From Moniliella sp. 'wahieum' (Eukaryota): DNA of 64,000 nt. The stretch is from positions 186,001 to 250,000 of the forward strand of contig RSEE01000015.1 in NCBI GenBank assembly GCA_003971905.1, written 5' to 3'. The notes under the pieces were generated by a model. The model saw nothing but the letters and a program-made list of their open reading frames with translations, made no database searches and was not told where the DNA came from. A program made the position numbers and the translations under genes. Position 1 is the stretch's first letter. Each line of letters begins with the position of its first letter. Shown here piece by piece: positions 761 to 59,973 of this stretch.

Positions 761-1660
761 GGCGGGAAGCGTAGGGGAAGATGGTGGCTGAGGGAAGGTG
801 GGCAGAGCGGAAAAAGATGGGATCGAACGCAGGCTGGCTAAGTTGTCGCAAACTCACATGGTTGCTATCTGCGGGTGGATGTTGTGGCCCAATGGCCACC
901 GGCGCCAAGCTAGGCCTCCGCGGCGCAAGCCCGGCCGCCCTCGGAGCGCATCCACGATCAGAAAAGGTGCCTGGCAGTGCCTGGCAGGGCCCATGCCATG
1001 CGCCCTCGCCTTCTGACACACGCCCCGCACGGGGGGCAGTGCTGGTGCCCAACGGTGGGCAGCCTATCACCCAGCGGCCACACTGCGCTGGTGCAGGCCC
1101 ATGCATCAACTCGGTTTCGGCGATAGTTGACGCGTGATGAACGACGCATGTGCACTCGGCTGCCGCGATGGCAAGGAAGAACGCGTCATCGAGCGCTAAG
1201 ATTGGGGCCGCCAGCTGCGGCCAGGCGCCGGCCTGCACTGCACGGGGCAGTGTCATGCATGTCATACATCATGCATCATGCACCTGCCTGCATGGGCTGC
1301 GCTGGGCTGCGGCAGGCTACGGCCGGGCCTACTGCGGCTGCGCCCCCAGCAGCGGCAGCACGGGGGCAGCCGAGCGCGTGGCTGCGCAGTCCGACCCCCC
1401 GCCGCGTACGCTTCAAGGAAGCTTCAAGATAGATGGAAGGCCTGAAACCAATGGCCCTATTTTAGTCGCCGCAAAGAAAGCGGCACGCCGGCAGCCTTCA
1501 TGCACTTCATGCATCTGTTCGGGCCGACAGCCGAAGGGCGTCGTAGCACGCGCGCCAACGGAAGCCCACTCTCTAGTCTTCCCAGCTGTGTTCTTTGCCA
1601 TAGCAACACGCCAATTGTGGGGCAAACGCAGCCTATGACGCACATGCTCCCCTCCCCTCG

Positions 1661-2672
1661 TCATTTCGTCTGTGTGTTCTGAGCCTCCGCCGCCAGCCAC
1701 CGCGGCAAGTCCTCAACCATCGACGGGCCCTGGGGCGTCCACCCCAGCAGGCGCACCGCCCGTTCGGCGCGGGAAAACGAGTCGGTGCCGAGGACAAAGC
1801 GAATGTAGGGCTGACGCGCCTCTGCCTCCTCCACCGACACATGTTCCACCTCGCTCGTGTCCAGCAGCCCCATCGCATGCCCCACTTTGGCCCCACGCGC
1901 CACATACTCCCCTAACACAATTGCCTCGCTTTGGCCCATGAACATGCCTCCCTCGGGTGCCCAGAGCCCTGTAGGAGTGGACGAATCAGGGCTTGCTGCT
2001 TTCTCGGCCAGACCAAGGTAGATCCGAGCAAGATCTTGGACATGTACTGCCCCCCACCGGTTCGTGCCTTGGTCAATGACAAATGCCTTGCGCTGATCCA
2101 GGGCGGCAGCCCAAAGTGGGTATGTCTCCTTCTTGCTGGGGCCAGTGCCTTGCCCGCACACCACACCGGGAAACACGATCGCTGCTCTCAGCCCCTTTTG
2201 GGCGGCCGAGATGACGAGGTGGTCGACAAAGCTGTGTGGTGCTTCGGGCGGCCGGTCGAGGATACGCTGAACACCGTGCCAGTCATCGTACGCCTCCTGA
2301 CAGGTCGGTGCACCAAACTGGTTGGCAGCTAGCGCCGCTGCTGCCCATGCCAGACCTCCGCTGGTGTGCAAGTACGTCGTCTCGCCTCTTGCCGCACCAC
2401 GAAGCAAAGCCGGGTGCCGACTCGGTCCTCGTCACTGCCAGCAGTGTGGATCACCACCGTGGCTTGTTCCGCCTGGGACTCGAGTGTGGTTGTCGCTGCA
2501 ACGTCGCCAAGGACGGTGCGGACCGTGGGATAGGCCTTCTGAACCATCTGCGCCTTGGTCTCGTCGCGCACCAAAACCGTCACGTCCCAGTCGGGATGGG
2601 TGGCCACAACGAGGGCCAGTACACTACCGCCAATGTACCCCGTGGCGCGCCCGTAAGAAACAGTCGGACCAT
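1661..2672 (-). CDS. NAD(P)-binding Rossmann-fold oxidoreductase (atypical SDR / epimerase-like)
   Basis: MVRLFLTGA|TGYIGGSVL glycine-rich motif, broken by a 2-bp indel near 2645. Also VIHTAG, YLHTSG, PGVVCGQG, WGAVHVQDLARIY and AVRLLGWTP. Second frameshift near 2410. Confidence 0.85.
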
Positions 2673-3951
2673 AGCGTATAGCTTGGGAAAATCGGGCGGG
2701 AGAGAGGCTCAGGCGCTCGGGATCAGATGACTTGGTGCACTGAAGAGAGACTGCGCAAGTGATTTTAACGAGCCCCTCCTCGACATCCAAAGCGATTGGA
2801 GGCGTGGGCAGGCTTCAAGCTTCAAGCTTCAAGCTTCAAAAGCCAAACTCGATGATCGATGTCGATGATCTATGAGGCCTGAAGCCTGCGGTGACTCGGT
2901 GACTTCGATACCACAAGGCAGACCATCAGATATACGACGGTCGATAATCGATAACTAGAACTGGCCGGGAATCGGGTTAGGCCTTAGGTAAGGCCTTAGG
3001 TAGGCACATGGTGCGTAGCGGACGCGTGCGTTGCGTCGTTCCGCCCACGCCTTGCTCGATTCCGCTCTGGGCCCACGGGGTCGGTAAAGGCCAACGGAAA
3101 TGGAGGATGGTGGGGCCGGTGGGGATAGTGATGCAAGTGATGTGCGATCCGCCGTGTGATGCACATGTGATGGATGATGGGTTCAACGCGTTCAGCCTTC
3201 AACTTGAACGTTCAACATTCCTTCGCTGCATTTTCCATCGATCATCTCGGTTCTTGTCCTCTCGTCGACTGCCTTTTTCTCCTGTGACACCACCATCACT
3301 CCCAAGGCCCAAGGCCTAACCCCGCTTCATTCATACCCGCAGCATGGCCTCCTCCTCCCCTTGATCTGGTTGGCTCCGTCTTACTCGTGTCCAAGAGTCT
3401 CTCTCTCGTTCCCGTCATCGCCTCGCGCCGAGCACACCGTCCAAAGGATATATGCGTCCAACAGGGTATATATTGAGCGTTATTGAACGCGTTGATGCCA
3501 AAAACCTTTGATGTGGGCTCGAGAGCGTCCTAGGCTGGGAGACTATTACGCCAGGGTGAGCGAAAGAAGCAAGCGAGCCAAGTTTGAATCCTACCGGTGA
3601 GGCATGTGCATGACCGGATGATCTGAGGGCCTGTTGAGACGTTGAGGCTAACGCTTTTGCCTCAACAGGCAGGTGCCGAGAGGCAATAGAGTTCCGACAG
3701 TGGGGTACAGAACTTACAGAGGCATTATAACGCTGTGATAACAGAGTGTGGTGCAATATAGCACAAGTGGCAGCACATATCAAAGGAGGGAGACTCCGAC
3801 TGCCTGCCAGATACGCTGGACAAGGAGCACGGAAGCATACCATCTCAAGCCACTATATCTTCCTCCTCATCCTCATCCGTCGCCAAGTGTGTGGATTACC
3901 AGCGCCCACTACCCCCATCCCCCTGTGGGCACCCCCACGTTCTCCTCCACC

Positions 3952-5790: not shown

Positions 5791-6963
5791 CTTTATTTAT
5801 CTTCTTCACTTGAGCTTCATGCATCAGGACTCCAGGTCTCATCAGGCCCGTGTGCCTGTTTTGGCCCCACACAGCCCTCTCGGGCACGACCGCTATAATC
5901 ACTCTCGTCTTCCTGTGTGCCCGTGCTGCGTGTGCGTGCCCCGAATACTATATTGTTGGGAGATTTCGGACTCTCGCCCGCTTCGTAAAGTCATGGCGCA
6001 CCTGCATCTACTTTTACTTTTTGAGGGGGGGGAGTGGTATGTTATGTTGATCCACAGTCGCTGCTCAATGCGCTTAAGCGGAGCTTCCTTTCATCCGGGT
6101 CCCCTTGCACATTGGCCTCGCTCGACCCTTTCTACGTTATTCTCGTGCTCAAGCTGAAATGGGTTGAACAAGAAGATGAATGTTGTGCATAATGTGTACC
6201 CATACTCTTTTCTCCCTTCCGAGTCGGCATGGGGGTCGCTTCACCATAATAGCTGCGGTCGATTTTGTGCAGATCCTAAGGCTTGCTGATTTGTTCTCTG
6301 CAATGGATCCAAACCCTTCTCCGTCCCCTTCCAAATGATCAGAGCTCTGCTTTACCCACAGCACATCGATGGATCATGATATATACTCCACTTTTTTTCA
6401 CTCACACCGGTACTTGGCTTGCGCAAAATAACAAAATAGATGGACTCCTATCGCAACGTACTTCATCCAAGACTCGAGCACCACTCCCCCGTTCTGGTCT
6501 CCCGCGCAGAATTTGTGATGCATGATAGGGAGGTAGTGGATGCTGCGTTCAGTGAGTATGGGAGTACAATCCCGGCCAGCACACTCTCCCCATCCTTCCT
6601 TTGCCCTTGATCCCATGAGTTAATCCCTTCCAAAAACCTTAATGTAAAGTGTAATGCAACTTGTCATGCGTTTGTATTTCCCCCTTTCCTATTCCACCGT
6701 GTGAGCGCTGAGAGTCTCACATTTGGACCCTTCTGCACTCATCCCAGCATAAAAAACGTACCCCGATTCGATCTCCCTGTCACTTCCTTTGGTTCACTCC
6801 GTAATGGCCCAAAGGCGGTGCCACCAACTTCGTGCTGACTTGGCTTGATAGCATGGGATAAGCCGAGCAAAAACGACACAAAACCCTATCCTTCGTCTTT
6901 GCGCATTTTGTCTCGAGGCCCTGGAAGCAGTCCCTTGAATCGCGTATGGCATACGATGGTCTT

Positions 6964-9908
6964 TTATTCCTCTTCGTCGTCTCTTCGCTCACTGGCTCCC
7001 CCAGGACCGTAGAAGTTCCTTCTCTGCACTTCGCTTGAGACTCAAGTCCTCCAGCAAGACCAGCAAGTCCTCATTCTCCGTCTCGGCCTCTTGGACCTGC
7101 ACTGCCTCACGCAGCAAGAGTTGCAGTCGCTCGATCCGTTCCAACAGAACCGGATCAGGCGAAGGAGAAACAAGTGCTTCTTCCTCTCTTTCTTCCTCCT
7201 CCTCCTCAGACGAAACTTCCTTCTCGTCCGCCGACTCCTCCTCGGCCGCCGCCGTCCCAGCAAGCGGCCAGGCGCAAGTCTGCCCACCTCGTCCCGCAAT
7301 CGCCGGATTTCGGCCGCTGCCCCAGCCGCTCCCATGGCGCGAAGGTGCACCTCGGCCTCGAGCTTGGTTCGAAGGGCGGTTAGATTGGCAATGGCCTCGT
7401 CCTGCTTTCTCTCGGCCTCAACATGGGCTTGACGAGCAGACTGTACTTCAGCACGAAGGAGGTGGAGGGAGGCTCGGCTGGCCTCCAGCCTGGGGGGAAG
7501 GGAGGAAGGTGCGAGCGGCCGTGTGTGGGCCATCAGACTCATCGCCCCTTGCCACCACAGCACAAAAGGCCAATCGAACCATTCCCCACCCCAGTCCGGA
7601 CAGCCGGGAAGAGCGTAGGATAGAGGCAGCGGTCCGGGCGTGGGAAGTGCGCCCCCAGCCGGACGCAGACGGGCAAACGTCACATGATCCCGTAGGAGCG
7701 AACTGATCTGGACCAGTTGAGCCAAGGGCGGGACCACCGCCTTGCTTTCTTCTCCCATGGGAGAGGGGGGAAAAGTGGCGTTCACGCCCAGTGCCAACGC
7801 AGCCAGAGCCGGGAGCAAGTCCTCCTTCTCCAGCATTTGGGTGAGCACGGCCATAAGGTCCGGTGAGAAGGGTAGGGCGTAGTCCCACCCCCATTGCGAG
7901 AGGAGTGTAAGGACGCCCACCTGGGTCCGGGGCGCCGGAGCCTGAAGAAGCAATAACATAAACTCCATGAAGGGGATTCTCTTCACGTCAACTGGTTGGC
8001 CTTCCTTCTCAGGCTGGCTCTCGGAGGGTGACACGGGAAGAACGAGGTTGCGGAGAACATCCTTCGCTTCGTTGGAACCCCTCAGTAGGTGGGAAAGAAT
8101 CTGGCAAGCTCGCAATCCTTGTGCATCCAATTTGCCCGTGGCCAAGACGCTGTGCCAGATGGAGAGGATCTGCCCTTCCTGGCAATAGGAAAGATAAACC
8201 TTCTCCACGTCTGGGTCGAGAGGGTCGATTGGTGCCATTGCATCCCCATTCTCTTCAGGAGGAAGAAGCAAACAGTGAATAAGAGCTTTGCGAAGAGCGA
8301 TGTTCTCCCCCAATCGGTCAAGGAGGCTGAGGAAGGCGACATACAGACCCCAGAGCGCACGTGGGTCCTCTGAGCTCTCTTCCAGCCCGATTGTCAAAAG
8401 GGCATGTAGAAGAGGTGGGATGGCACGGGACTGGACGAAGGACGCCTGCGCTTCCAGACACCCTTCTGCCAGCGTCACGACTACCGCCGCGTGCACACGC
8501 ACGTTCAACGGCGAGTCCAAAAGCAGCGTCCCCACCCAAGGAAGTAAGGTGGCGGCAATGTGCCGTTGGACCTCCAATTTGGTCTCATTGAGCTCCTTCT
8601 CCTTGCCCGTCTCATCATTGGCCAGTTCCGACTTCTCTGAATTGTCCGTCTCCTCCTTGGGTGTTTCCTCCTTGGGTGTTTCCTCCTTGGTTGTCTCCTC
8701 CTTGGTTGTCTCCTCCTTGGTTGTCTCCTCGGTTGTCTCCTCCTTAGTTGTCCCTTCCTTCGGCGTCTCATTGTGAATCTCCTTGGTGGTGGGTTGCAAC
8801 GACTCAGGTTCGGGATCGGCCAGCAAGACCTGCAGCACCCTCAGGCCTGCTTGTGCTGTCACCTCCCCTCCTCGTTCAAGGACAGGCCGGAGAAGGGTGC
8901 CGAGGCGCGCTTGGGAGAAGTACTTGCGTGCGCCCTGAGCACGAGTGAGGATGGCCTCGCAGGATTCGAGCGCGTCCAAATCGGTTTCCCAGGGAAGGGG
9001 GATAGTCTCCCGTGCCTGCGCACGAAGAGAGGAAGCGGAGCAGAACGTCCAATCCGCCCTCGTACAGGGCCAGCTGGGCCAACGGCGCACTGTGTCCGAC
9101 CAACGAAGGCAGCAGCAACAACGTTTCCCCCCGCAAGGCCGCACGTGCATGCACCCCCTGTGGTTCTTCTTCGTCCGGCTCAAATTGCGCTTCGTCTGGA
9201 GAGATGCAATGGAGCAGAACGGCCATTCCACCGCCAAGGGACAGCAGCGCTGCTCCCGTTCGCTCCGGCGCCGAGTGAACCAAAGTGCGAAGAAGCGCAA
9301 GGGAGGCCAGCGCGACGCTAGGCGCGTAATCCAAGTCGGGCGAAACTTGCTGCTCCGAAAGGTGCACCCCGGGTCCGAGCAGCGACAAGGACCAGGCCAA
9401 GCCTTCTTGTTTCAAGAACGCTTCGGCCCGCGCTGGGTCGTCGCACAGCGCAGTCAAGGTATCCAGCAACGCCGTCAACACTTCCCCGCGCGCGCGTTCG
9501 TGTACCGCGCGACGAACTTGACGCATGCGCGCGGCCTGGCGTGCCCGTTGCCGCGCCAGGTCTTCCCCACCGGAGGGGGAGGCTATGTGGCCCATGTCAA
9601 GCGGAGGCAGAGGGGCAGGGGCGGGCAAGGAGGGGGAGGGCGTCGAGGAGTGCGGCCCAGGCATCGGCAGCAACGAGGGCGGGCCGACTGCGAGCGAGGC
9701 TGCGGAGACTGTAGAGGGCGGCGCGGACGTCGGCCAGCGCTTGGTCCTGGTCCAGAGGCGGGGACTGGGACTCGGGCGCGGAGGACTGGGGGTTGGCGTC
9801 GGCGGCGAGGGCGAGGCGGGCGGCGAGGGCGCGGACGGTATCCTGCTCGGTGGTGGGCGGGTGGGCGGCGTGCCAGCGCTGCTGCAGCCACGAGGCGGTG
9901 GTGAGCAT
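6964..9908 (-). CDS. USO1: Uso1/p115 vesicle-tethering protein
   Basis: N-terminal TVRALAARL...DVRAALYSLRSLAR, armadillo-like head (LRGETLLLL, GGLDVLLRFL, ARKYFSQ, ILSHLLRGSNEAKDVL), coiled coil, and C-terminal ENEDLLVLLEDLSLKR...VSE plus acidic tail. Several frameshifts. Confidence 0.8.
8650..8770 (-). repeat. 15-bp coding tandem repeat (ETTKE/ETPKE, about 7-8 units) inside USO1
   Basis: Plus-strand units ctccttggttgtctc / ctccttgggtgtttc, translating to ETPKEGTTKEETTEETTKEETTKEETTKEETPKEETPKEE. Confidence 0.9.
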
Positions 9909-12013: not shown

Positions 12014-13142
12014 CTAGCTGGCAACAGGTCGTGGTTGGAAGCGGGACGTGCCAGGTGGCCAGGCGGCGGGAGAGGCGGATGGTGCTGCGGGGGTGGGAGG
12101 GATGCGCAGGAGGCGCAGGTGGTGGTGATGCGGACGGGGACAATCAAGTCACAGGGCACTGGGGGCATCTCTTTTCCTGCTATATCAGCATCTGCGCTAC
12201 GCCGCACAATCGGCCGAGCGTCGCGAGCTTAGCGAGCTGCGAACAGGTTGCATCCACTGCCCCCCTGCCGCGCATCAGGCGCAGGACGCTCGTTGAACAC
12301 GTTGAACATTGGACGTACGTACTTTGAACGTTGAATATTGAACGTACTTGGTTCAACATTCAACGTTCAACGTTCGCGTTCACCGGTCGCCAAGGACCAA
12401 GTACCGAGGCACAGAGCATAGGACGTCGATTGTATTCCCTGCACCCTGTCGCTTCGCCACCACACCATCACCCCGAGCCCATGCGCTCGCGTCACTAGCG
12501 CCACTCTACTTCTAGTCAAAGTAGCTTCCATCTTCACTCTTCACAAACAGCTTCTGCTCTGGGGGTCGGTTATGCTGTGGGCTGTCCTCTCTCTTTTCTT
12601 TGCCTTCACGCCTGGCTGCTCGCGAGAATGCGCTTCGCATGCAACCCATATGCAGACGGGGGAGGGCATATGTATTGTGCATGATGAGGGGAAAGAAGAG
12701 AGAAAAAAGATAAGAAAAAGAAGAGGAATTGATATGCGGGGGGTGGGCGTGGGGAGAGGGGGGACGAAGAAGGCATGTGGACGCAACTGGTATAGCGAGA
12801 CGCAGTAGCATAGACGTTGCTTTCCCAGTGGAGTGACATGGCGAATCGATGTCCGTGTGTACGATGCAGAGGATTGGAGATGATTGGAGAGGAATAGGGG
12901 TGAGGGTGGATGAGAGGAAAAGTGGAAGAAGCCGGAAAGAGGATGTGGAGAGGGTAATGGGGAAACGGGGTAGTGTTCGATGCGGAGCTCAACCCGTTAC
13001 AGAAACCAAAATAGACGGAGCAAAAGTGAGTGGAGAAGAGAAGGCGAAAAAGTCCAAGATGAATCGCATGATCCACAAGAAAAGAGGCAAAGGGGAAAGT
13101 GAGTCCGCCGCAGTCCGTGATCGGAAAGTGAGGGACCAGGGA

Positions 13143-15009: not shown

Positions 15010-16255
15010 GAAGCCGAAGGGGCGATGGTGGGAAGGTGGAGGAGGGCGGTGCACCGCGGTAGCAGTGCTGTTGCTGCAGGTGTAGGGTACTGTAGTCGTC
15101 GCACCAAGCAAAGCCCCCCTGTGCTGAGCGGCTGAGGACGGCTACGGGGCTGCTGGAGACGGCGTGCGCATAGCGCTGTGCTCAGCAGACGGCTTGGGCG
15201 GCAGGCGGGCAAAGGCGGAGAAAGGTAAGACAGAGCTGACGCACCACCGTTGTACAATACGACGATGCCTGCCGTGTGGGCAGCAGTAGAACACGGCACC
15301 ACCATCGCCTGTCAGATCTAGACGGAAGAGGGCCACGGCCGCGTGTGTGACACTTGACGGTGACCATATGCTGCCCGAGGGCGGGCCTGCGAGGACAGGC
15401 AGAGGCTCTGCCCCGTAGTGTGCTCTCACTCAAGCTCAACGTACAACATTCGGCTCAGCGCGGTGAGCCTGGCTTGAATCGCATGGGTCACTCACTAGTC
15501 AATCATGAATTAGTCGCGATTGTTGGTGCAGCCACAGCCAGCATCAGCGCTCAGCCAGTGCTCAGCCAGCACGCAGCTCAGCAGCAGCTCCCCTTCTGCC
15601 GTGAGCGCGTGAGCCCCCCTCTATTAGGTCGCATCTGATGGTCTGGAAGGCAATGCCAAAGAGAGGCAATGCGGTCATCGAATCACACCTGTTTTTCTTG
15701 GCGTAATATATCAATGCGTCCGCGCAACATCCATCGGCTACACTTTGGAAGTAGTGTTGTGTGCGTCATCCTCTCTGTCGGGTGGCCACCTCTTCATCGG
15801 CCACTACTAATCACTCCCTTGCTGCGCAGCGCGCGCCCATCCAGTAGTGTCAGCGCGTCAGCGTCACCGTCTGCGCCGAAAGGCCGCGCCGTCAGGCTCA
15901 GGCGCTCAGGTCAGCCGGCCAGGCCGGTCATGCGGTCATCGATCAACGGCAGAGGCACTGTTGCGACGCTGACGCTGACCGTCCTCGATGACATGGCCAG
16001 TGGGTGAATATGAACGGTGAGAATGCGGACATGCCATGGGTCAATGTGACATGGAGGAGCTAGACGGCTGGTGCCGGCTGGCGCAGCCGCTAGGACCTAT
16101 GTCCTCTGCTAGGTCCCTGGGCCCAGGGTCCTCTCCGAACGGCAGTGGGGTAATTAGAAGGAAACGGGCCATATGATGCATTGAGTGACCATGAGTGTCA
16201 TGCCGTGAGCCACTCCATACAATCGTGTGGGGTTTTTGGCATTCCCATATAGTCG

Positions 16256-16330
16256 GTCACCAGTGTCACCAAAGCGTCACCACAACGTCACCGTGGAGTC
16301 ACCACAGCGTCACCACAGCGTCACCACAGC
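16256..16330 (+). repeat. 11-bp minisatellite GTCACCACAGC, about 7 degenerate units
   Basis: gtcaccagt gtcaccaaagc gtcaccacaac gtcaccgtgga gtcaccacagc gtcaccacagc gtcaccacagc. Confidence 0.9.
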
Positions 16331-18881
16331 TTTCTGGCCGGCCCGCCGCGGAAGCCAGCTCCACACACTCCACCGCCAGCCTCTCACTCTGGAGCGGAGC
16401 ACCAATCCACCGTTGTCGCTGTGCTGCCACCGCTTCCTTCTTCTACCGCCAAAACCCACCCGTTTAAGGAACCAGGCGGATCGCCAGAAGATCAGGTCCT
16501 CTGGCAGAGCACGAGGGTACGTGCTGAGCGATCGATGGGTGAGGACGAGGAGTCGGTCAACGGAGAGCGCTCGGAAAGCTGTCGTCCGGTAACGCGAACG
16601 CAAGGATAGCTACCAGCTTCCAATGGGTTAAAGACTAAGAGATTGTCGTCCGTTGAATCCGGGATAGCTACGAGCTTCCAATGGCCAAGGACTTGTGCAA
16701 CAGAGTAAACTGTGCACGAGAGAGAAGGGAACAGTCAGAAATGGCTTCTTATAAGTTCCTGACGCTAATAGTCCAATATTGAGAGCAACAGGGAGAAAAG
16801 GAAAGAGGGGAAGAAGGCGGGAGCGCAGCTAATGCTGCGCACGCACATGTGCGGAAAGTCGAGATGGCTTCCGCTTACCAGTGGCGTGGCCGATGAAGTC
16901 GATGGCCTGTGATGGAAGATCACGCATCCTCTAACACCCTCTGTGGTGCCCGCCATCCGTTCCCATACCCGCCGAGGAAGCGGGTGTGGAAACGGATGAA
17001 CGATGAACGTGTGGTAGACATCCGAGCGGTGAAAACTATTATCTCCATTGAGACTCAGTAGTCAATTCCTTCAATCCATTTCCCAAGCATCTTGCCTGCT
17101 GTCTTGAAGGCATAGTATCCGTTCCAGCAGGCGAAGCAGCTTATACACCTTCGAACAAAATCAGATTACTGTGTTTGTGCACTTTTGATGCTCTGTGCCA
17201 AACCCTTTTCCACAAGGGGAGAGAATGACTCTTGAGTGGTTCCGTCCGGTACTATATTATATATGTACTCGACGTTCTTGTCTTCGCATTCCACTTTTGC
17301 TCGAACAGTGGAGAAGAGAAACAAACTCCTTCTCCCAGTGTTCCGCACATCTCGTTCTTTATGTGATGGAATGATTGATGACCAACAAACTTGGTACGTG
17401 TATATGAAAGAAAGCGCTTTTCCCTTCACAGGCTGGCTCCTCTGGCCTTCGGCCCCGCCTACTGGGGATGACGGAGACATGGAGGCACCCGGATAACGCT
17501 GCCCCCATGATTCTTTCCTTGCCGATACACTGGACCACATGATTCGGTGCTCGATAATTAGATAAAGAAAATGGGGCCGAAAGGGAGGTTTTTCGGGAAG
17601 AGTGTGGTATGCTAAGCTATTTAGCATCGACTGAGAGGCGGTGATAGGCCTCGTGGCGCACCATGTCCTGCTAGACCCGGGCTTGGAAGATGGCAGACGA
17701 GGCCGGTAGAGTGGTAGATGCGGATCCATGCGGCCCCGTTGGGGGTAGAAGCGCCCAATGGGAGGTGCATCGATGTTGGATGAGAAGAGTACCAACATGA
17801 GTGTGCCTCTCCGGCATCGTCGCGGTCATAGCAAGGGGGGTGGGCCATCGGTGCAATGCATGGGATCGCATTGAATGTTGATCGATGATCCCATGCCCAT
17901 GATGCATGATTCTTCACCCTGGCAAGAGACGCGTGGCCATGTGATGGGGTGGTGTTAGCCACATCACGCGCACGTCGTGAGTGCGAGTGTGGAAGGGATG
18001 CGGATGTGATGTGGGGGCTGTGGTGGGACAAGCGATGGGCCGAAGGGGCGTTTCTTATTTGGGACGGGTGGGTGGTGGACAGGACGGTCGAAGGACAAGC
18101 GCACGACGCATTTATCAGCCACCCGCCCCTCTGCACCGCCCCCACCTCCGCCCCCACCTCCGCCCCCACCTCCTCCTCCTCTCCACCCCTCCCAGCGGCC
18201 CGGGATGCGACCACACGCTGGCCGTCGTCGCTCCCGCTCGCCCAGCCGCCCACAGCACCAACAAGCGCCCCGCCCGCCCCCGCACCCACAACGCCCGCCA
18301 CACCGCCGCCACCGCCGCCGTCGTCGTGCCCTTGCCGCGCCCGGTGGATCCGCCTCCACCCCCAGGGGCCCTCCCCCATGGCGTCCCTTGCGTTGTCTCG
18401 AATGGGTGCGGACGCCTATGGCCGCTTGATGAGCTGGCCTGGATCCGAGGCTTGCGGGGCCGCTTGCGTCCTGCCGTCGCCCCGCCATCGCCCCCACACC
18501 CTTCTGGTCCTGTCTTCCCCCTCTACGAACAACGCCAAGCACCGTTCCAAGGCGAATGACACGTCCAGAGAACGGCGACTGACAGCAGCTTTAGCCTACC
18601 GCTGCTTTCGAGCAAGACCGCCTTCACTTTGAACCAATGTCTCCTCGCATCCCCTCTACCCCCTTTCACAGTCGATTGCCACGTGCGCGGCCTGATGATC
18701 AAGACAACAAAGCGTGCACCACGGAAGCGCTCACGCCTTTCCATCTCGGCACGCCTGCTTCCGTTCCGGTGGAGGGAGATGGTGTTCACCCTGATTTTTC
18801 CGTTAGGTGGCCTGAACGGGCTGCCACGCGGCGCCCGGACCGGCGCGAGGTGCAAGTCCAGTCAGTGCTGTTACTGTGCCA

Positions 18882-22011: not shown

Positions 22012-22098
22012 TGCCTCTTGGCCGAATCGAACGACCGATCTTCTCATTCCAGAATCACAAGATACTAGTGAGATGCTTTACCACTGAGCCAAAGAGGC
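22012..22098 (-). tRNA. tRNA-Thr(AGT) with ~15-nt intron
   Basis: Reverse complement: GCCTCTT TG GCTC AGTGGTAA AGC A TCTCA CT AGT A [tcttgtgattctgga] A TGAGA AGATC GGTCG TTCGATT CGGCC AAGAGGC A. Acceptor, D, anticodon and T arms are recognisable, the intron is at the canonical 37/38 position, and a T-run terminator follows. Confidence 0.93.
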
Positions 22099-36753: not shown

Positions 36754-37803
36754 GTCCAAGCACGACCTCGACCCATTGCTGATGGACATGGACATGGCAC
36801 CACTCCCTTTTGGGCCTGATTCCCTCCCACTTGCGTGGGTCTAGCAACCCATTCCATGCTGCGCCCCGACCTCCCTACTATAGCCATGCATGCTTTGCCC
36901 TGGCCCGGAGCAAAGAGAGGCTTTCCCTCTTTTCTGATGCCCTTGTTCCGGCTTTTCTCCGAAAGTTCTGATCTTTTGTCCAGTCTGTCTCGTACGTTCT
37001 TCTTGTTTCACGTTGGTTCCTGGTTCTTCTCTCCTATACACCACGAGGGCCTCTTTCTTTCTTATTCGCTGTTGCCGTGGGCAAGCAGCGTTATGTTTGT
37101 TGGTCTCGTTTTGGGTCTGCGACAATGACCTCACTGTTATGGCCTGCACCTTATCATCCTGTCACATATACACCGCACAATGAAAATGTCCGTTGACGTC
37201 GTCATCCACCACTTCTTCCCAGCTTCATGTAGCCACAGGTGCATAGCTAATCGAAAATGCCGGTAACAAGGTTCCGGATAGATATGTGAGGACTACGTAC
37301 GAAATTCAAGGTGGGCAAGGCCCACAAGATTGGGCACCAGAAATTTCGATTAGCCATGTGCATATAAGGGCGAGGGTTTGCTTCATGGTGTGCCACGCCA
37401 TACATTCACCTGCGACTATCAAGGCCCAAGGCTGCATGTCTATGTACACATTGACAAGCACGTCCGGTTACATCACCGTCTTCTTCCAACACCTGACTAC
37501 CTCCATAGGTGAAGAGAATTACCTACACTTTCTGTAAGATGGCTGAGGTGTCCACCGTAACGCTCCTCAGTTTCTGATCCACATCATAAAATGCATCGAT
37601 AGCCCCCCATCTCTCCGTAGTCCGTATGCTTGCGGCTTCTCCCTCTCTGCCCTTTCCCCATTGCTTGCCTAATAGCTTTGGACAGTACGCAACCAGTGCC
37701 ACATGTCACTAATGGTGGTAAAATGTGTTGACATTCATGCTGCAGTGGTGTCATTTTCTGCAGAGGGAATCCAGGCACCGGCCTTCATACCATGCAGGCG
37801 CCT

Positions 37804-38172
37804 TTAGTTGTATCCAAACTGCTGGTAACTCTGGTCTCAGCATGACGCTTGGCCTTCTCCCGATCAACGAAGTCCAGGCCCTTGGTCTCCGCAAGGCGAT
37901 CGACTCCAGCACCGGCCAAACCAGCAAGGATTTCTTTAGCATGGGCATGGTCTTCGGGCTCGCCATTTGTGGCCTTGTGGTCCTCATACGCTGTTCCGCG
38001 TTTTGGTCAGGTGTTGCTTCCCTTATTAGTACACATGAGAACGAGACGTACCCTTCGCAGCGGCAAAGGCGGCAGCACCGCCCAAAACTTCGTGGGAGAG
38101 CTTGGCCTTGTGCTCGTCCGAGCCGTCGTAGTTGTTGACGGTGTCGTAGTGGTCTTGGCCGAAGAAACCCAT
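37804..38172 (-). CDS. CipC-like (DUF3759) small stress/antibiotic-response protein
   Basis: Hand translation: MGFFGQDHYDTVNNYDGSDEHKAKLSHEVLGGAAAFAAAK|intron|EYEDHKATNGEPEDHAHAKEILAGLAGAGVDRLAETKGLDFVDREKAKRHA. Not captured by the ORF track. Confidence 0.88.
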
Positions 38173-39114
38173 GGTGGTTGAGTGGGAGAGAAGAGAAAGA
38201 GACGTAGGAGGTGGTGGTGGTAATGGAGCAACAGCGTACAGGTGTGGTGGGAAGAGAGGAAAGGATTCTGCTGTCTTTTATGCTCCAGCCAGCTGCCGGA
38301 GCGAGCCAAGAGGTACCCCTTAGTAGTTGCTCTACACATCACGACGAGAATCTCCGCCCGCGGACAATGATCCGCGAGCTGTGCAACCCCACATTTCATC
38401 GTTTCGCTCGCCTCCACTCATAGCAACACCAGGCGACAGTACTAACGTATTGTCCCAACGATGGCATGCACTCGAGGAGCGATTGTTGACGTGTGAGGTG
38501 AATCCGGTGAGGCGCGAGGTGGAAGCTGTTATGATTGTGAGTTGAGAGCCGAAGACTGGCCCGTGCACTATACCATGGAGAGAGGTCGTTTTGAGGAAAC
38601 CGAGCGAAAGCCACACCATAGAATGATGTCGCCAACAAGACAAATGGGGTGACATCGTCCAGGGGTTGCTGTCCGACGGGGCTTTGGGAGCGACGGAGAT
38701 GAAATCGCTCGCGAGTACCTAAGGCGAACAGCCAGGCTGTGTGGCAACGGAGAGCAAATTTCCCACTAATTTCCACCACGGAACTAGTCGGACTTTCGTT
38801 ATGGATCGAGCGCGTTTTATCCGACAGCGCGTTAGTAACACTCTTCGATTTGACATTCCAGAAACTATGTTTACGCGTCTACGTGGGAGCCTGTGGAGGG
38901 CGGGCAGTAGGGCATACAATAATAGCATCGCAACGATGAATTTTGAGGGACCGAGTTCAGAAGTGCCCGCTCAGTGAGCGCTCAGCCTGAGCGCTGGCTC
39001 AGACATCGGGGCGATTGCTGCCTCGCATAGTTTACAACTGAAAGAAACTGTTGGCGTTTTGCTAGAGCCCGAGGTCTGAGGTCACAGGGTAGCGACCGGG
39101 ATGCAAATCACCAT

Positions 39115-39542
39115 TTAGGCGTCGATGATGGTGACCTCAACCTCAACACCGGGTTCCAGGTTGAAGCGGGTGATGAGGCGGACATCCTCCGACGTGCCGG
39201 AGAAGTCAATCAGACGCTTGTGAATCTTCATCTCGAAGTGGTCCCAGGTCTTGGAGCCCTCACCACAGGGCGACTTGCGCACAACGTGCGAAAGAACCTT
39301 CGTGGGGAGACGGACGGGGCCCTTAACGGGCAGGCCCTTGTCCTTGGAGCGCGTAACAAGGTCCGTGCAAACTGAAAACAAGGTGTTAGTGTTACTGGGT
39401 AGTATTTCACGTGGCACCAAAGGAGGCGAGACGTACCCTTCTCGAGGTTCTTGAGGTTGCGGCTGGTCAGCGTGATGCGAATCTTGTGCTTCTGAGCCTG
39501 GGTCTGGGCATCGCCCTTGGGGTCCTTGGCGACGTAACTCAT
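39115..39542 (-). CDS. RPS20: 40S ribosomal protein S20 (uS10)
   Basis: [23 protein letters not shown]...[12 protein letters not shown]...[25 protein letters not shown]. One intron (about 39373-39436). Confidence 0.97.
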
Positions 39543-40237
39543 GTCGGAATCAGCGGTGACCAAGAAGACGATCAGGAAAAGCTGGTGGGTGGGGGTAGAA
39601 CATCGCACCAGCATCCCACTTTGACAGGCCGGCAAAAGCTGCGGCGCATTTTCGTTAGGGTTGTGTCATCTGCCGTGTAAATAACCCCGCGCTCTTTGCT
39701 CAAGCTGAAATGTCAGATTGTTTTTCATTTCAGATTTTACTTTTGACAGCACGTGACCGGCGACCGCTAGGTTCTCTGCAGGTTGCCGGTTACCTGTTAC
39801 CGGTTACCCAGGAGACTGGGCTTATGTCAGCCCGCGGCTTGTCGCGTGACGCATGGCGTCACGCGTGAGGGTCTGGGGCACGGGGCATGCTGAGGCGCTG
39901 AGGGGGGGTTAGGCGACGATGTGTGACTTGTCCGGTGACTGTGCGGGGTGTGACGGGTGACGGGTGAGGCTCAGGCTGAGCAGCTGCTGACATGTGACAC
40001 CCAGACCGAGTATGGCTTGAGTCATGCATCATGCATTATGCATCATGCATCAGCATCAGCATCATCCCAGCCAATGTGCGGCTCAGGAATTGCAAGCAGC
40101 AATCGAGCAACCCTTTATCGGCGCCACCGCCGCCACCACCGCCACCGCCGCCACCCCCATCCACTTGTCATTGCCATGAGCGCAGTCGGTGATCTCCCAC
40201 GGCTGCCCCCCCTCTGGCTGCCACAAAGTCTTCTGCT

Positions 40238-42135: not shown

Positions 42136-43744
42136 ACTACCTCTTTTGTAGTGGTAGCCGGTGAAGATGGGCTCCTTTTCCTAAATCGCTGGCCACCACG
42201 ACCTGTTCTGATGCCTGCCCATCCTTGAGGAACGCGAAGGTGATAAGAGGGTGAAGGCATGCGGGCACTACCATACACGTACACCTCTACTATACGCATG
42301 ATATATCCTGACCAATTCATGGTAGTTGTTCGCGGGTAGGTGTGATGGGTGGCTCACCCGCTCATCTTCTGTCGTGATATGTGACAGGGGATTTTGTACG
42401 GGGCCGCATGGCGGATGGCGGACCGTGCTAGTGCTCCAATCCTTTCGCGTCATCTCGCCAGCGTCTCATTTGCTGAGTTGTCGAGCAAGAACATTGAGAC
42501 TTCGGCCTTCTCTCCCCTGTGGTGTGGCGACGGCGAGACCAGCGATGAGATCGAGGGCTCTCCCCTCTCCCGGACCTCAAGCAGGCAGTCCGGAGGTGTG
42601 TGATGTAGGGACAGAGTTTACGAGACCGCGGTAGTAGCGTGCTCGTTGAATAAGCACATCAGGAGCACAACCATACCAAAAAGAGGGTAAGCTGAGAAAG
42701 TTATGAAGGGCTCTACTAGAGACAAACGTGGTTTGGGTGTGGTACAGAAATGTATTCATGACCAGGTAGTGGACGGCATTCGAGAGAGGGGATACGTACC
42801 GGGAAGGAGTGAAGCTTGAAGGTAATTGTAGAAAGTTTATCGCATTAGGGCAGAACGAATGGATGTGCACATGACCGCGATATAGGTGAGGGCAGTAGTT
42901 GCTTGACAATTGATACTCGACGCCCGATTCCCACTTAAACGTTAAACCCTGGGGAGGGCAGCAAAGAATAGCAGAAAGAACAGGGAGTCAGCGACCAATT
43001 CCGGTACCATGAAAACAAAGCTCAGTGAGGTAACTATTGTTCTCATTGCCGACTCAACTCTCCGAGGAGAGGAATCAGGCGTGCGAAGAGCTGGGTTAGA
43101 AGTCAGGCGTATCGCCTTTTGTCATCTTGAATGCCAGATGGGATCGGATGTAAACTTACCTGTTTAAGAGGGAGACCAAAGGGAGACAAGAGAGGCGGTC
43201 ACGAGCCGAGCCTTAATGTCGGTAGGATGCTCGTTCGACGTTCTTTGGTAATGACGATGGTGCAGAGCCACAAAACAGCTACCTGCAGCAAAAGTTTCCG
43301 TGTAGAAACGAAGTGCGGAACAGGTATGATAGAACATCAAACTCCGCCTCCGCCTCCACACGCCACATCAAGTATCGAGTCAAGTCATTCACTGGGTCAT
43401 TGACTAGTCAGTTTTAAAGCGGACGTGGAGGGTGGAGTGGAGCGGAGGTGGAAGGGTCGTGCGACGAAGTCATTGGTAACCAGTAACTGGTTCTAGTAAA
43501 GCTAGTAACTAGTACCAGTAACTCTGGTCGGTGTCTCGTCGATATTAAACCTGAGGGGCCTGAGGCCTGAAGCGTTGAAGCAGCTGACCAAGAGCCTCAG
43601 GAGTGACCTCACCCGTGACCGGTGAACGGTGAACGCAACGAACATGAACGTTCAACGTCAACACGCTGAAGTTCAGCGACACCTCTTCAAGCATCCAGCT
43701 GACGCTTCATCGACCGATAGCTTCATTTCTTAGCTTCATACCAA

Positions 43745-43831: not shown

Positions 43832-44006
43832 GCTACAAATACCTAGAGAGGTTGCAGAAACTGGAGAAATCGTTGAACATTTAATTGCTCTGGGCTTTCA
43901 CTCAGGTATCAGCCGTCAAGGGCGGAGATTAGGTCAGAGTGTGGGGAATGCCGGCATCGCCAACCTGAGAGCTGGACGGCTGTCTCTACCCCACCACTCT
44001 GCCACT

Positions 44007-49388: not shown

Positions 49389-50444
49389 GGGGGATAGCAC
49401 AAAAATGTACACGAGAAGCGGACCGTGGATGTTGGAATCTATATGGTGGTACTATTGAAAGAGCCATCCAAAAAGAAGTCGATGGTCATTGGCCTTCTGC
49501 CCCAGAAAGATAGTCACAGTTGGGGGTTGTGGGGAACACAGAAGGCTTGAAGAATCACTGTCTGGCTTTTGTGAGGAGCTCTTCTGCTGGAGGGGTCTCT
49601 CGATCCGAGGGTGTGAATCAAAATCGGGCACACTGAGAGATGTTGTCCCGCGCGGACCATCTACACATGGTATCGCAAGTCATTAATTTCGGAATAACCG
49701 GTAACCGGTAACCCTCGACCATATGTAGGCGAGCGCAGAGGCGGTGGTTGGCGCGCTGGCTGAGCGCTGAGGCTCAGCACTAAGCGCTTGGAGCGGGATA
49801 ATGAGAACCAGACTGTCCGAATCCCTTGAAGATATGTTAATCGTATTCACATGATAAGTGCAAAAGTGCTGGATAAGAGCGCATGTGATGGATGATGAGG
49901 GCTAGACTAACTATGCCGTACAACTATGATCTCATCGACATCACACATGCAGTATATCTCTGGATCGAGTGGTAGGCCGTAGGCCGTATCGCTACAGGCA
50001 TCAACGTTCAACGTTCGAAACGTATATTCAAAACCTGGTGTGTGGATGTGTGTGGATATGAGTGTGTGCGTCCTCTCTACAGGACGTGCCCAAAGCCCTA
50101 ATCTGCCGCATGACAATGACGAATGAGTATAGCCAAGAGGATGCTGATGGCGCTGACGCGCGTACGAAGATATAAGCCTGTTGAAAGCCTGCCATGAGTC
50201 CTTCCCTCGATGGTGATGCAATCGCACTGGTGGTGGTGGTGGTCTAAGCCAATAGCAAGGCCTACAGAGGAACATCAAGCAGCGAGTCGCCACCAGGGGC
50301 TGAGCTGTGGAACAAGGAAAAACAGGAGAGAGAAAACAACGGAACTCGCAGGCCTGAGGAGGAGAACTGAAGGGGCATTGGGCAAAGCACGAGCCACCCG
50401 ATGGCTCAACACTTTTTTCAAAAGCTCTTCAAGTCGTCAAGGAC

Positions 50445-50536
50445 AGATGGAGTGCCCTATGTTAGCTGCACTAATTGGGCTCGCTTGTCGAGATGGAGTG
50501 CCCTATGTTAGCTGCACTAATTGGGCTCGCTTGTCG
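50445..50536 (+). repeat. Perfect 46-bp tandem duplication
   Basis: agatggagtgccctatgttagctgcactaattgggctcgcttgtcg occurs twice, head to tail. Confidence 0.95.
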
Positions 50537-50961
50537 AACATTATAGGGTGGCGCCGCAGAGATTCATTTAGTGCATGCACACAAGACCTTTGTGCGTAGT
50601 AGGCTCGATTCCTTGCATTATAGTGCAACGTCATACATATTCGCCCGTGGTGTCGCCACATTCGCCTGCGGCGTTGTATACGCGTAGGCCATACAAGAGA
50701 AGCAAAACAACTGAAGACCACGCATCATCGATCCATCATCGGGAGATCGGAAAGTAATGCCAGTATCCAGTACCTCTGACGTAATTTTCCGTAAAGTTCG
50801 ACATCTCATTGGCTGGTGCGACATCCGTGCACAGTACAACACTTAGTTCATTAGACCATCCATCAAACGAATCACTTGAAGCTAAGGAGCTTCAACGTCG
50901 CCACCACCACCACCAGCACCATCACGCCTTCTACTATTTTCGCCCCCTGTGCCCCGCCATC

Positions 50962-51487: not shown

Positions 51488-52667
51488 TCAATTCTCCTTG
51501 AAGCTCAGAGCTCAGAGCTGAGACTCAACGTGAAGAGAAGCAAGGCACGCTTTGTTTTCCCACCCGCCTTCACGTTTAATCCTCAAGAATATGACCACAG
51601 ACTTCTTGATCGAGAACCATGCCAATACCAAGGGTTGGCCCCCCCAGAGCACGATGCCATTGTAACACCTTGACAACCTCACAATACAGTTTCAGAAGAA
51701 CGTGCCGATTAGTTGTATAATGAATCTATTGTAGTCGCAAAAGTTAAACAAGGACATGAGGGATTCACTGATAGCAGCATAATATGCATGCGATTGCCCA
51801 GTGGAGTTCGCTCTCTTCGACGCTATCTCGAAGGGTTGTTCGGTTATTAGGGCCGGTAATTCGAGTTGGCCAACTTGCACAATGTTATCCAAGCCCAGAA
51901 TCTCAAGAAGGTTTCCATCAGCCTTTTTTTATGCTTTTCTGTCAGGCCAGCTAGAGAAGGATGGAGACGTTATGCTATGATCAAGCCGCCTATAAGGGGA
52001 AGAGGAAGGAGCGATGTGTGATCTGTGGGTCAAAAGCACCAGGAGACGGTCATGCATACACAGTGCTCCGTTCACGCTCACTCAAGATGCAGGACACGTT
52101 CCATGCGCTCTTCCGCGCATTATGTTCGGCGGGACTATAAAGGAGGAATGCTCCTCCTCCCTGAGATTGACTTCTGCTAGGAAAAGGCATTCCCGCATCT
52201 GTCGAGACCCTTCGCCGCCGTCCCGACGAGTACGGTTGCGACCGGAATCTGCGTCATTCGGGCTCAGGCTTTTGCAAGGAGCCTACCGCGAGCGGTCGCA
52301 TATGTTGCTGCGCATCATCTCTTCTTCGCCAACGTCTCTGAAGCCTTCTGTGCTCGCTTCAGTCAATTTCGCCACAAGTACATTGCCAAGTACGAATGAT
52401 GTCTCTTGCCCTTGTTGGTTCTGGTTGCCTCCTGTATCTGTAACATTTTGTGATCTGCTCTCCCCACTGAAGTTTTCCCTGTTGTCGGGCTCAGGTCTCA
52501 ATATCTTCGCACCAATATTACCAGTGAGACTCCTTAAACCTCCCACGATTCTGACAATGTTACGAGGGAGCCACTCCTTCCTCCTCTTTCCCCATCTCCC
52601 CCTCTGAGTCTGCATATCCAAGAAACGAATGAGGACGCGTAGTGTGAGAGGGAGAACAAGAATGAAT

Positions 52668-55257: not shown

Positions 55258-55926
55258 GGTAGGGGCCGGCAGGGGGCGGGCAGGCAGAGCAGACGGACGG
55301 AGGAGGGGCCAGCTGGGCCGGCAGGCGGAGGAGCGGAGGTAGGAGAAGAGTGTGCGGGCACACACAGGGGGCATGGGCCTTTAGAGGCGGGGCGCTGCTC
55401 CAGGCCGAGGGGATGCGCTCTCGCTGGAGCGTTTCTGCGGTGGCGAGGCCGGCTGACTCGACCGACTCAGACGCTGCCGAACGAAGACATGAAAAAGCCG
55501 GCGGTTACGCAGTTACGTGGTTACGTCAGGCTGTCACCCATCTACGTCATACGCACTTGATTCCGCACCCACACCACACTGCACCCACCAAATAGGAGCT
55601 ATGTCAGGCCTCCCTCAGGCCTCAGGCTTGAGAATCGAAACAGCAGCAAAATGCATCGGAAACAAGAGACAGGTTCACATGCGACAAGAGGAGATATACG
55701 AAGGCGATATACAAAGGCGATATACGAAAGCGTTCAGATGAGGGGGCAACCCATCAACAAGGGGACGAGGCGACGGGAGGCCAAGAAGTGATAGCAGGGT
55801 ATCGACCAGGAGGGATAAGCGGGCGAACAGGGGTGGGGAAACAGTCTTGCTTTAAATGGCGAAAAATTAAAAGTTCTTGCAGTAAACGGACATCAGATCA
55901 GTCGTCGACAGAGGGACAAGCCACAG

Positions 55927-58322: not shown

Positions 58323-59973
58323 GGGTCTTGCGAGTGGCGCCGAGAGGCGATGCGGGAGAAAGCAGAGGGAGGGATGTGGACGAGAAAAAGGAAATGTCGA
58401 GAGGCTTGGGGCGCTCTTTTCTTTTATTGCCACCGCAGCCCCGTTGCGCCCAGATTGGGCCGAATTGGGGGATGATCGATGATCGATGATGCATGATGCG
58501 TGATGTATGATGTATGATGTGTGATGCATGATGGGCCCGGCGCTGCCCGGCCTCACCCGACCAGATAACCGGCGGGTGCTGGCTGGCGTCAGTGGGCCAG
58601 TGCCGCTGCATCCACCAACATAAACGCCGAAGCGTGGGCGTGCGTGCGTGGGGCCAGGGCGCAGCAGCCGAGGAGCCGAGGAGCCCCGCCTGGGCCTGTT
58701 CTTGATTCCACACGGTCGCTGGCCCGTCGCAGGCCGCAGCTGGCCCACTGTGGCATCTTCCGCCCGCCGGTCCCAGCCACTGACCAGCCCCCACGCACAG
58801 GTCACCGGTCACACCAGTGCGCTCTAGTGCCCCACCACCGCGCCACCCTCCCCGCCCTTTGGTGCGGCTGAACCCGGCTGAATAGCAGGCCTGAGCGCCT
58901 GAACTGCTGAGCCTCAGCCGCACCGTCCTCCCTCAGTGCCTCAGCGCCTCAGCTGCAGGCTGCACTGGCTCACCGGTCCCAGCCTCGAGCACACAGCGCT
59001 AGCACAGTGCCCCTCCTGCCACGCCACCCGGCAGTCCACCATGCATCATGCATCATGCATCGCCTGCATCAGCATCACGTGGCAACGCAGTGCTCCATCC
59101 GAGTGCTGTCGGTGTTCCCCGCATGTGGGCGGGCGGAATGAGACAAGCTGCGGAGATTATCCATAGCATCGATCATCGATTACTTGATTCTTGCTGGGTC
59201 GCCGGTCGTGTGACACATGTGGCGGGTGGTGGCATGCATGACATGCGACGGTCACGTACAGTGGCTATTCCTTGCCCGCTGTCTCCTTTTGCGCTGAGGA
59301 TCTTGCAGAGTCGGTTGGCCATCATCCAATTCCCCATGCACCCATGCTTCCGATTGCACGCAGACGCTGGGGGCGCTTGTCCTGATCAATCTTGACTCTC
59401 CAACAGTCATCCGGCCCCCACAGCCCCTATGAGCTCTTCGTACCGCTGCAACGACTTGACATCTCCTTCATCAGGCCTCAGCGCCTCAGAAGGCCTCACT
59501 TGAGGCCTTAGTAGTTCTTCTCAGATCTCACTAGTATTAGTCCCTAGTCGTAATAGGTATAAGAGAGAGGGAGAGAGGCTGCGAACCTCTGTCGTGGCGT
59601 ATCAATTTAGAGCCCCCACCACCCATCAGAGGCTATACCTTCGGGGAGAGAGGCAGCAGCCCTGCGGTGTGCCGAAGCCAAAGTCCCCTTATCTGCCGTT
59701 ATATACTCACCTATATGGAATCTCATATCAGCGGGAAAGGGGAGAAAGATCAAACATATAGGTATTTTGTTTTTTTCATGGAGAGGAGAGTGTGTAGCAG
59801 AATGCACCCCCCTCATGTTGGTCCTGATGTGAATGGTCTTCAATCACGAGGCCTGAGAAGGGCTGAAGTTTGTGGGGGGGGGACAATCGAAGCAAAATCA
59901 GGACGGAATCAGACAGGGAGAAGTATGGAGATATCAGAGGCGACGAGACCGGTGGTGTTACAACCCGTTTTTC

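Follow-up and report, generated by a model that had tools for sequence, protein, structure and literature searches.

The window analyzed here is a 64-kb stretch of contig RSEE01000015.1, taken as a whole. It has a G+C content of 58% and an ordinary eukaryotic gene content, with matches to the Pfam families Pmp3, NmrA/epimerase-like, VTT, sedolisin, HIT, NADH dehydrogenase 30-kDa subunit, longin SNARE, and forkhead, and further to ribosomal protein S20, FYVE/RING, Pex24, glyoxalase, Vms1, F-box, MFS, and OTU. The best named relatives of the Vms1-like open reading frame (ORF) belong to Ustilaginomycotina (Tilletiaria, Violaceomyces, Ustilago, and Malassezia), with an identity of at most 47%; one further protein reached 73%. 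We therefore place the source among the smut-related basidiomycetes; no named relative in the searched databases is close to it. The subject of this analysis is a recurrent rule in the DNA between the genes, in which a TNA triplet is followed by a 4-bp palindrome and by the same TNA again. A first-pass annotation had read this rule as a candidate footprint of an undescribed system that cuts DNA, forms hairpins, and repairs the break. An instance of the motif is present, to within 1 base, at each of the positions where that annotation had placed one, and the inverted forms at 3205, 43645, and 38975 were confirmed as well.

Enrichment of the TNA-palindrome-TNA rule

We found 123 cases of a TNA followed after 4 bp by the same TNA, 63 of them with a palindromic and 60 with a non-palindromic spacer. 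The expectation from 100 dinucleotide-preserving shuffles was 2.36 (standard deviation 1.37) and 36.1, respectively. The comparison of palindromic with non-palindromic spacers at lengths 2 to 8, which the first-pass annotation had proposed, thus singled out length 4 alone (63 versus 2.4). Palindromic spacers of 2, 3, 5, 6, 7, and 8 bp numbered 4, 16, 4, 2, 0, and 1, against 8.5, 9.8, 2.1, 0.45, 0.7, and 0.18 expected from dinucleotide shuffles, and were at or near chance. TNA was also the only triplet enriched among the 16 XNY-palindrome-XNY classes, with 63 instances against 3 to 9 in each of the other 15. The palindrome itself varied: 14 of the 16 possible 4-bp palindromes are in use, in line with the at least ten cores noticed initially. 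The two TNA triplets are direct copies of each other, as N was the same in 63 pairs, complementary in 8, and otherwise combined in 12. Perfect two-copy arrays of period 7 numbered 43, compared to 3.8 expected, and their unit was a TNA-core quasi-palindrome in 26. The excess of non-palindromic spacers consisted entirely of sequences one change away from a palindrome (38 versus 13.9 expected), which are decayed copies; spacers without any complementary pair were close to expectation (22 versus 20.7).

As a proxy for coding sequence, we used stop-to-stop ORFs of at least 200 amino acids, which cover 56% of the window. A mask based on G+C at third codon positions was dropped in favor of ORF length, as it did not separate genes from spurious ORFs. 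Fifty-four of the 63 palindromic instances lay outside these ORFs, which bears out the earlier impression, gained by eye, that the clusters are scarce in coding sequence. Divergent promoters, the DNA between convergent ORFs, and regions downstream of genes all contained them, and 18 of the 63 lay in a 4.1-kb ORF-free stretch upstream of the forkhead gene. The 123 motif matches fell into 48 clusters totalling 2,152 bp.

For an outside control, we took 880,351 bp of mostly fungal DNA from 80 metagenome loci that surround a Vms1 homologue. The best of these 80 gave a 52% protein match over part of its length; none is therefore close, and the set was used solely as a negative control. It held 49 palindromic and 652 non-palindromic spacers, i.e., 7.0% palindromic, compared to 6.25% by chance and 51% in the window. 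Measured against these contigs, the grammar is specific to this lineage.

Structure of the repeat unit

The 2 nt before the first TNA and the 2 nt after the last TNA were compared with the neighboring palindrome in all 53 chains of the motif. The numbers of matching bases (upstream, downstream) were distributed as follows:

(2,2): 10 chains
(0,2): 9 chains
(2,0): 7 chains
(1,2): 6 chains
(2,1): 6 chains
(1,1): 8 chains
(0,1): 5 chains
(1,0): 1 chain
(0,0): 1 chain

At least one flank continued the palindrome exactly in 38 of the 53 chains. Only a single chain matched on neither flank, whereas a TNA duplicated around an arbitrary palindrome should yield this outcome in ~32% of chains, as the commonest class. 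Exactly one flank matched fully in 28 chains, where the other flank showed no match in 16 and one match in 12. This 16:12 ratio is close to the 9:6 of unrelated sequence, and the second flank therefore behaves as random sequence. Thus, the distribution of flank matches identifies the elementary event as TNAcd + d'c' + TNAcd, or its mirror abTNA + b'a' + abTNA, with primes marking complements. The unit is a 5-bp direct repeat parted by an inverted copy of its own outer 2 bases. It can equally be read as a 7-bp direct duplication, abTNAcd, in which one copy has exchanged its junction-side 2 nt for the inverted complement of the end of the other copy. A motif-free search for any 5-mer followed by the reverse complement of its last 2 bases and by the same 5-mer gave 51 cases versus 3.8 expected, 32 of which start with TNA; the mirror form gave 46 versus 4.9.

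The 14-mers sorted into the following classes:

2-nt replacement: 30 (type A 16, type B 14; 0.1-0.2 expected for each type)
palindromic heptamer plainly duplicated: 16
non-palindromic heptamer plainly duplicated: 7 (0.12 expected)
central N complemented too: 5
1-nt replacement only: 0

In all, ~76 events were inferred in 64 kb. Eight of the 53 chains (15%) are multiple. Among the inferred non-simple targets, 10 of 55 are quasi-palindromic, and the central N tracks the background usage of TNA. Because of this count and the one-sided flank fit in 28 of 53 chains, the palindrome is not a target rule: the target is NNTNANN, and the palindrome arises in healing rather than being demanded by cutting. 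The same figures rule out a preference for palindromic 7-bp targets, so that the quasi-palindromic heptamer that the first-pass annotation had taken for the target rule had to be given up. The 7-bp NNTNANN target it had proposed for a hairpin-forming transposon does agree with the shape of the unit, a direct 7-bp duplication with short inverted copies of its ends.

Intact 7-bp TNA-core heptamers were also found as pairs separated by a short filler, and gaps of 1, 2, 4, and 5 nt each occurred at 20 to 50 times expectation. At gap 1 (7 versus 0.34 expected), the filler complements an adjacent target end in 6 of 7 cases, and at gap 2 (8 versus 0.16 expected) 6 of the 8 fillers reproduce the inverted end exactly. 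Inverted copies of 4 nt (at 1411) and 5 nt (at 2982) are among the pairs at gaps 4 and 5. A reading as simple 8- or 9-bp tandems does not apply to 4 of the 7 pairs at gap 1 and to 6 of the 8 at gap 2. Fillers of this inverted, palindromic (P) type were present in 12 of 15 pairs with a TNA core, compared to 22 of 90 with other cores.

Origin of the arrays

The window thus shows a 7-bp direct duplication, a TNA core, inverted 2-nt copies, and P-type fillers, and the pattern is lacking in the other fungi sampled. Cut-and-paste transposons that hairpin their flanks classically leave this kind of scar, a direct duplication of fixed length with inverted copies of its ends where the ends are joined. 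We therefore propose that the grammar represents the accumulated excision scars of a cut-and-paste DNA transposon that is itself absent from the window, and we put the probability of this reading at about 0.65. The transposon itself, the hairpin intermediate, and the in-register joining are the parts that we infer. The best candidate is a hAT element of the 7-bp-duplication kind ("hAT7"-like).

According to the proposed scheme, insertion would duplicate a 7-bp target abTNAcd, in which only the T in third and the A in fifth position are fixed. At excision, the transposase would seal each flank as a hairpin, in the manner of hAT, Transib, MULE, and RAG enzymes. Host nucleases would then cut each hairpin a few bases away from its tip, turning the last 2-3 bases of each target copy into a self-complementary overhang. 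Joining of the overhangs in register, with one strand as the template, would give abTNAcd-d'c'TNAcd or abTNAb'a'-abTNAcd, a product that is always 14 bp long and carries a 4-bp palindrome between identical TNA triplets. More rarely, both copies would be kept, either as a plain tandem or with 1-5 inverted (P) bases in between. Fresh insertions into the newly formed TNA sites, perhaps together with slippage, would lengthen the arrays, which point mutation would then erode.

If the hairpins were opened 3 nt from the tip, the A and T of the TNA core would end both overhangs, and the nicks would be paired whatever the target, with a 4-nt mismatched bubble between them. Resolving this bubble by copying either strand would produce the mirror products in equal numbers and with a constant length of 14 bp; 16 and 14 were observed. 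In a 1-nt replacement the overhang ends would be unpaired, which could explain the absence of that class, and the same pairing reasoning could explain why the 5-nt version, with N complemented, is rare yet present. As a rough check, ~76 events on ~1,100-1,300 non-coding TNA sites (the number of sites being an estimate) predict a second hit in 12-14% of scars. Multiple chains make up 15%, which supports repeated independent hits.

Other schemes were discarded. Several with offset first nicks, worked out on paper, predict spacers d'c'b'a' or d'c'ab, unlike those observed. P nucleotides derived from TNA itself would predict T-N'-N'-A spacers, which were not seen among the spacers, and each of the 11 apparent cases of hairpin opening at 1 nt from the tip is also a case of the 2-nt type. 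Perfect two-copy arrays were also enriched at period 8 (8 versus ~1 expected) and period 9 (8 versus 0.3 expected). Several of these hold a TNA-core heptamer plus 1-2 bases and may be variant scars, or could be scars from elements with 8- or 9-bp duplications.

Several observations weigh against excision of a transposon. Pairs of terminal inverted repeats flanked by a 7-bp NNTNANN duplication, which the first-pass annotation had suggested looking for, gave no candidate in the 64-kb window, and a relaxed scan of the window for filled sites picked up nothing but the arrays. A transposase or integrase domain was present in none of the 268 window ORFs of at least 100 amino acids, as had been noted from the outset for transposases. 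Neither flank matches fully in 15 of the 53 chains, and the chain at 34454 (TCA-GGCC-TCA-CTAG-TCA) is not derivable by the simple rule. The by-products of free end joining are not enriched (TNATNA, 30 versus 39 expected; two palindromes in a row, 1 versus 0.12), and on these counts we rejected a model in which the ends are joined freely, either both trimmed or both left whole. The fillers at 1496, 2890, 2982, 12292, 34630, and 58939 read equally well as plain 8-, 9-, or 12-bp tandems, and a few of the gap-4 and gap-5 filler matches (16275, 16308, 26303, and 26313) come from arrays of period 10-12 that are not related to the grammar. Published Ac/Ds footprints are less uniform than the product seen here, with 28 types in 128 clones (PMC5873905). 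Last, ~76 events per 64 kb demand long-lasting activity.

Much of the proposed chemistry is known. The enzymes of hAT, Transib, and MULE elements, like RAG, turn the flanking DNA into hairpins, which Artemis or other host enzymes open, and the end joining that follows produces footprints (PMC5499845). In Candida albicans, the footprints of Ac/Ds combine deletions with palindromic P nucleotides and are strongly biased, two types alone covering 53 of 128 clones; where the hairpin is opened differs between species, and the Artemis-related Pso2 has been implicated in budding yeast (PMC5873905). The hAT7 families of rust fungi (Puccinia and Melampsora), described in 2025, duplicate 7 bp at the target and group with fungal and Ac-type hAT elements, and the Kyakuja elements of Laccaria also make 7-bp duplications (PMC12730594). 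In the excerpts of PMC12730594 we found neither a target consensus for hAT7 or Kyakuja nor hAT7 footprints. With flank hairpins and P-nucleotide footprints known from hAT, Transib, MULE, and RAG, and with hAT families of 7-bp duplication published, the word "undescribed" in the first-pass annotation was too strong. The hairpin chemistry and the 7-bp-duplication hAT lineage are already known; new are the T-N-A-centered target, the near-deterministic repair product, and a scar density high enough for one sequence to reveal the rule. The literature searched (excision footprints, fungal intergenic heptamers, and hAT/Ustilago) contained no account of a grammar of this kind.

The footprints of Ac/Ds and other hAT elements in plants, S. 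cerevisiae, and Candida albicans resemble the scars described here in that the target duplication is kept, with deletions and P nucleotides at the junction, and in that the outcome is biased, host-specific, and explained by flank hairpins opened by host nucleases (PMC5873905, PMC5499845). Unlike for Ac/Ds, the duplication here is 7 bp rather than 8 bp and has a T-N-A center, a single 2-3-nt replacement that keeps 14 bp dominates, and the record comprises ~76 natural sites in 64 kb instead of one experimental donor site. The hAT7 families share a basidiomycete host and a 7-bp duplication, which is inferred here from scars only (PMC12730594). In contrast, they were described in Pucciniomycotina, whereas the window comes from Ustilaginomycotina, and the window ORFs hold no hAT sequence. 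Kyakuja (KDZ) elements likewise combine 7-bp target duplications with a basidiomycete host (PMC12730594). However, their termini are 5'-CA..TG-3' without inverted repeats, and flank hairpins are not established for them. Galileo and 1360 of the P superfamily also duplicate 7 bp, and their consensus is palindromic on either side of a central base that is free, but the center is A-N-T and not T-N-A, and the host is an insect; P-element excision is not known to hairpin the flanks. V(D)J joining by RAG, in which the hairpins are opened by Artemis, involves no target duplication and is programmed and somatic rather than a germ-line mutational record. Its coding joints are similar in that palindromic P nucleotides arise when the hairpins at the flanks are opened away from the tip (PMC5499845). 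In rice, excision scars have been recognized genome-wide as a source of small indels; they are heterogeneous (8 of 94 perfect, the rest with deletions or filler), and a sister genome was needed to see them (PMC4423477). Here, in contrast, the scars are uniform enough to be read from one sequence.

Among other explanations, a host-encoded nuclease, perhaps domesticated and transposase-derived, could make 7-bp staggered, hairpin-ended breaks at TNA that are healed by end joining. We consider this unlikely, even though neither element nor transposase lies in the 64 kb, the product is unusually uniform, and the scar density is very high. A direct 7-bp duplication requires fill-in of a staggered cut and P nucleotides require abutting hairpinned ends, for which insertion followed by excision would be the simplest source. 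A new mechanism would be needed to obtain duplication and hairpins together, and 64 kb is a small sample of a genome. We know of no such host nuclease system. Were it to exist, break repair in unconstrained DNA would be a major lineage-specific source of small insertions, and a new endogenous mutational process would be writing a readable grammar into intergenic DNA.

The chances are lower again that the arrays are microsatellite-like, with replication slippage expanding heptamers, quasi-palindromic units best, by way of hairpins. Arrays do reach about 7-11 units and existing ones may have been lengthened in this way, and 16 palindromic heptamers are plainly duplicated. Slippage, however, copies directly, yet 28 of 53 chains have the structure 5 + 2 (inverted) + 5 with an unrelated outer flank, and the fillers are inverted copies of target ends. 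Moreover, the TNA core alone is affected among 16 equivalent classes, with a spacer length of 4 only, and the pattern is missing from the other fungi sampled. Selection of the arrays as cis-regulatory or structural promoter elements, such as sites for a dimeric factor, is improbable. They are clustered in intergenic DNA, with 18 instances in the 4.1 kb upstream of the forkhead gene, but the use of 14 different cores argues against a shared recognition site, scars also occur between the convergent ORFs at 5817-6711, many are decayed by single changes, and the logic of the flanks is mutational, not recognitional. Highly improbable are PIF/Harbinger- or IS5-like scars, in which a 3-bp TNA duplication would enclose 2 nt from both inverted termini (TNA-wx-x'w'-TNA). 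The TAA/TTA target of Harbinger is similar to TNA (PMC4423477) and a direct triplet around an inverted pair is the right topology, but the ~32% of chains without a flank match that this origin predicts are contradicted by the flank test (1 of 53, with a fully matching flank in 38 of 53), at least 14 families with different termini would be needed, and intact 7-bp duplications with filler exist.

If transposon excision is the correct explanation, a single 64-kb stretch records ~76 natural excision scars of a single kind, which elsewhere have been made donor site by donor site in the laboratory. A cut-and-paste element with few or no nearby copies could then rank among the main causes of small insertions in a fungus with a compact genome. 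The scars would form a natural data set on hairpin opening and joining in the host fungus, almost always 2-3 bases from the tip and in register, and would define a target rule, NNTNANN, for a transposon lineage with 7-bp duplications. They would also be a warning for annotation, as arrays that mimic microsatellites or binding-site clusters would be mutational debris that seeds palindromes in promoters.

Sites and other features along the window

The scars and arrays are listed below in the order of their positions.

1128-1280: TGA-CGCG-TGA (1128) and CATCATG x2.3 (1267-1282), between the Pmp3-like and NmrA-like genes
1411-1511: CTTCAAG-GAAG-CTTCAAG, whose 4-nt filler repeats the right target end in inverted form; CTTCATG-CA-CTTCATG, which also reads as a perfect tandem of 9 bp
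2813-3000: dense cluster in a divergent promoter, with (CTTCAAG)x4, a TGA-TCGA / TGA-GGCC series, a GATAATC pair, GGTTAGG-CCTTAGG, and CCTTAGG-TAAGG-CCTTAGG (2982), which has a 5-nt inverted filler and is also a perfect 12-bp tandem
3127-3214: AGTGATG-CA-AGTGATG; TGTGATG-CACA-TGTGATG; the 10-bp perfect palindrome TGAACGTTCA
5817-6711: three isolated scars (5817, 6516, and 6702) between two convergent ORFs
12292-12376: TGA-ACGT / TGA-ATAT / TGA-ACGT array facing an inverted TCA-ACGT array
15492-15945: TCA-CTAG-TCA, CATCAGC-GCTCAGC, CGTGAGC-G-CGTGAGC, GCTCAGG-C-GCTCAGG, and TCA-TCGA-TCA, upstream of the sedolisin-like gene
16995-17909: GATGAAC x2 (16995), a simple duplication of a non-palindromic target; GTTGATC-GATGATC and CATGATG-CATGATT (17877-17911)
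32312-32970: the densest stretch, with more than 15 scars and the cores AGCT, ACGT, GGCC, TCGA, CATG, GCGC, and TTAA, far upstream of the forkhead gene
33182-33732: TAA-GCGC-TAA; a TGA-CATG series; a decayed (CGTAACG)n array at 33563-33646; TCA-GCGC-TCA
34028-34744: CGTAATC-GA-CGTAATC; a GGTGACC series with fillers G and CA; TCA-GGCC-TCA-CTAG-TCA; (AGTCACT)x2.7; GGTTACC x2
38973-40065: divergent RPS20 / FYVE-RING promoter, with AGTGAGC-GCTCAGC (N complemented), TGTTACC-GGTTACC, GCTGACA-TGTGACA, and (CATCATG)n x6.6
42808-43654: AGTGAAG-CTTGAAG, CTTAAAC-GTTAAAC, CCTGAGG-GG-CCTGAGG, CCTGAGG-CCTGAAG, GGTGAAC x2, and CATGAAC-GTTCAAC
49693-50016: AATAACC-GGTAACC-GGTAACC, GCTGAGC-GCTGAGG, and CATCAAC-GTTCAAC
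51503-51516: GCTCAGA x2, a simple duplication
55613-55627: CCTCAGG x2.1, between the Vms1-like gene and the next gene
58471-58533: nine units with a constant TGA and the spacers TCGA, TCGA, TGCA, TGCG, TGTA, TGTA, TGTG, and TGCA
58800-59530: GGTCACC-GGTCACA, CCTCAGC-G-CCTCAGC, (CATCATG)x3.1, TCA-GGCC-TCA, and TCTCAGA-TCTCACT

At 12318-12376, the opposed heptamer arrays lie 7 nt apart, and their 26-nt arms are 88% complementary, so that cruciform extrusion could occur. The array at 58471-58533 lies within a long open frame, upstream of a likely start Met that directly precedes the F-box domain, and it is therefore probably 5' leader or promoter rather than coding sequence.

The region at 29628-40192 (~10.5 kb) is poor in long ORFs, and its G+C falls to 48-53% at 30-34 kb. 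It includes the following:

35443-35943, + strand: ORF of the forkhead-domain gene (Pfam match)
39118-39549, - strand: RPS20

Other features of the window are as follows:

1664-2814, - strand: NmrA/epimerase-like gene, split across the overlapping ORFs 1664-2431 and 2332-2814, which indicates an intron or a frameshift
7045-9411, - strand: 789-amino acid ORF, matching no Pfam family, with 15/42-bp repeats at 8648-8783 that encode T-K-E-E-T-type peptide repeats
22012-22098, - strand: tRNA-Tyr (anticodon GTA), whose 87-nt span suggests an intron
50445-50537: perfect 46-bp tandem duplication (2.0 copies, 100% identical), intergenic, upstream of the glyoxalase-like gene and outside the heptamer grammar
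16261-16330: tandem array of period 11, CAGCGTCACCA x6.4
18136-18173: tandem array of period 12, CCGCCCCCACCT x3.2
26279-26336: tandem array of period 10-12, TGGTGGTGAA

The tRNA is the sole Rfam or ARAGORN match in the window, and the Rfam and tRNA scans gave nothing that bears on the heptamer arrays. The last three tandem arrays do not follow the TNA rule and gave a few false matches in the filler scan.

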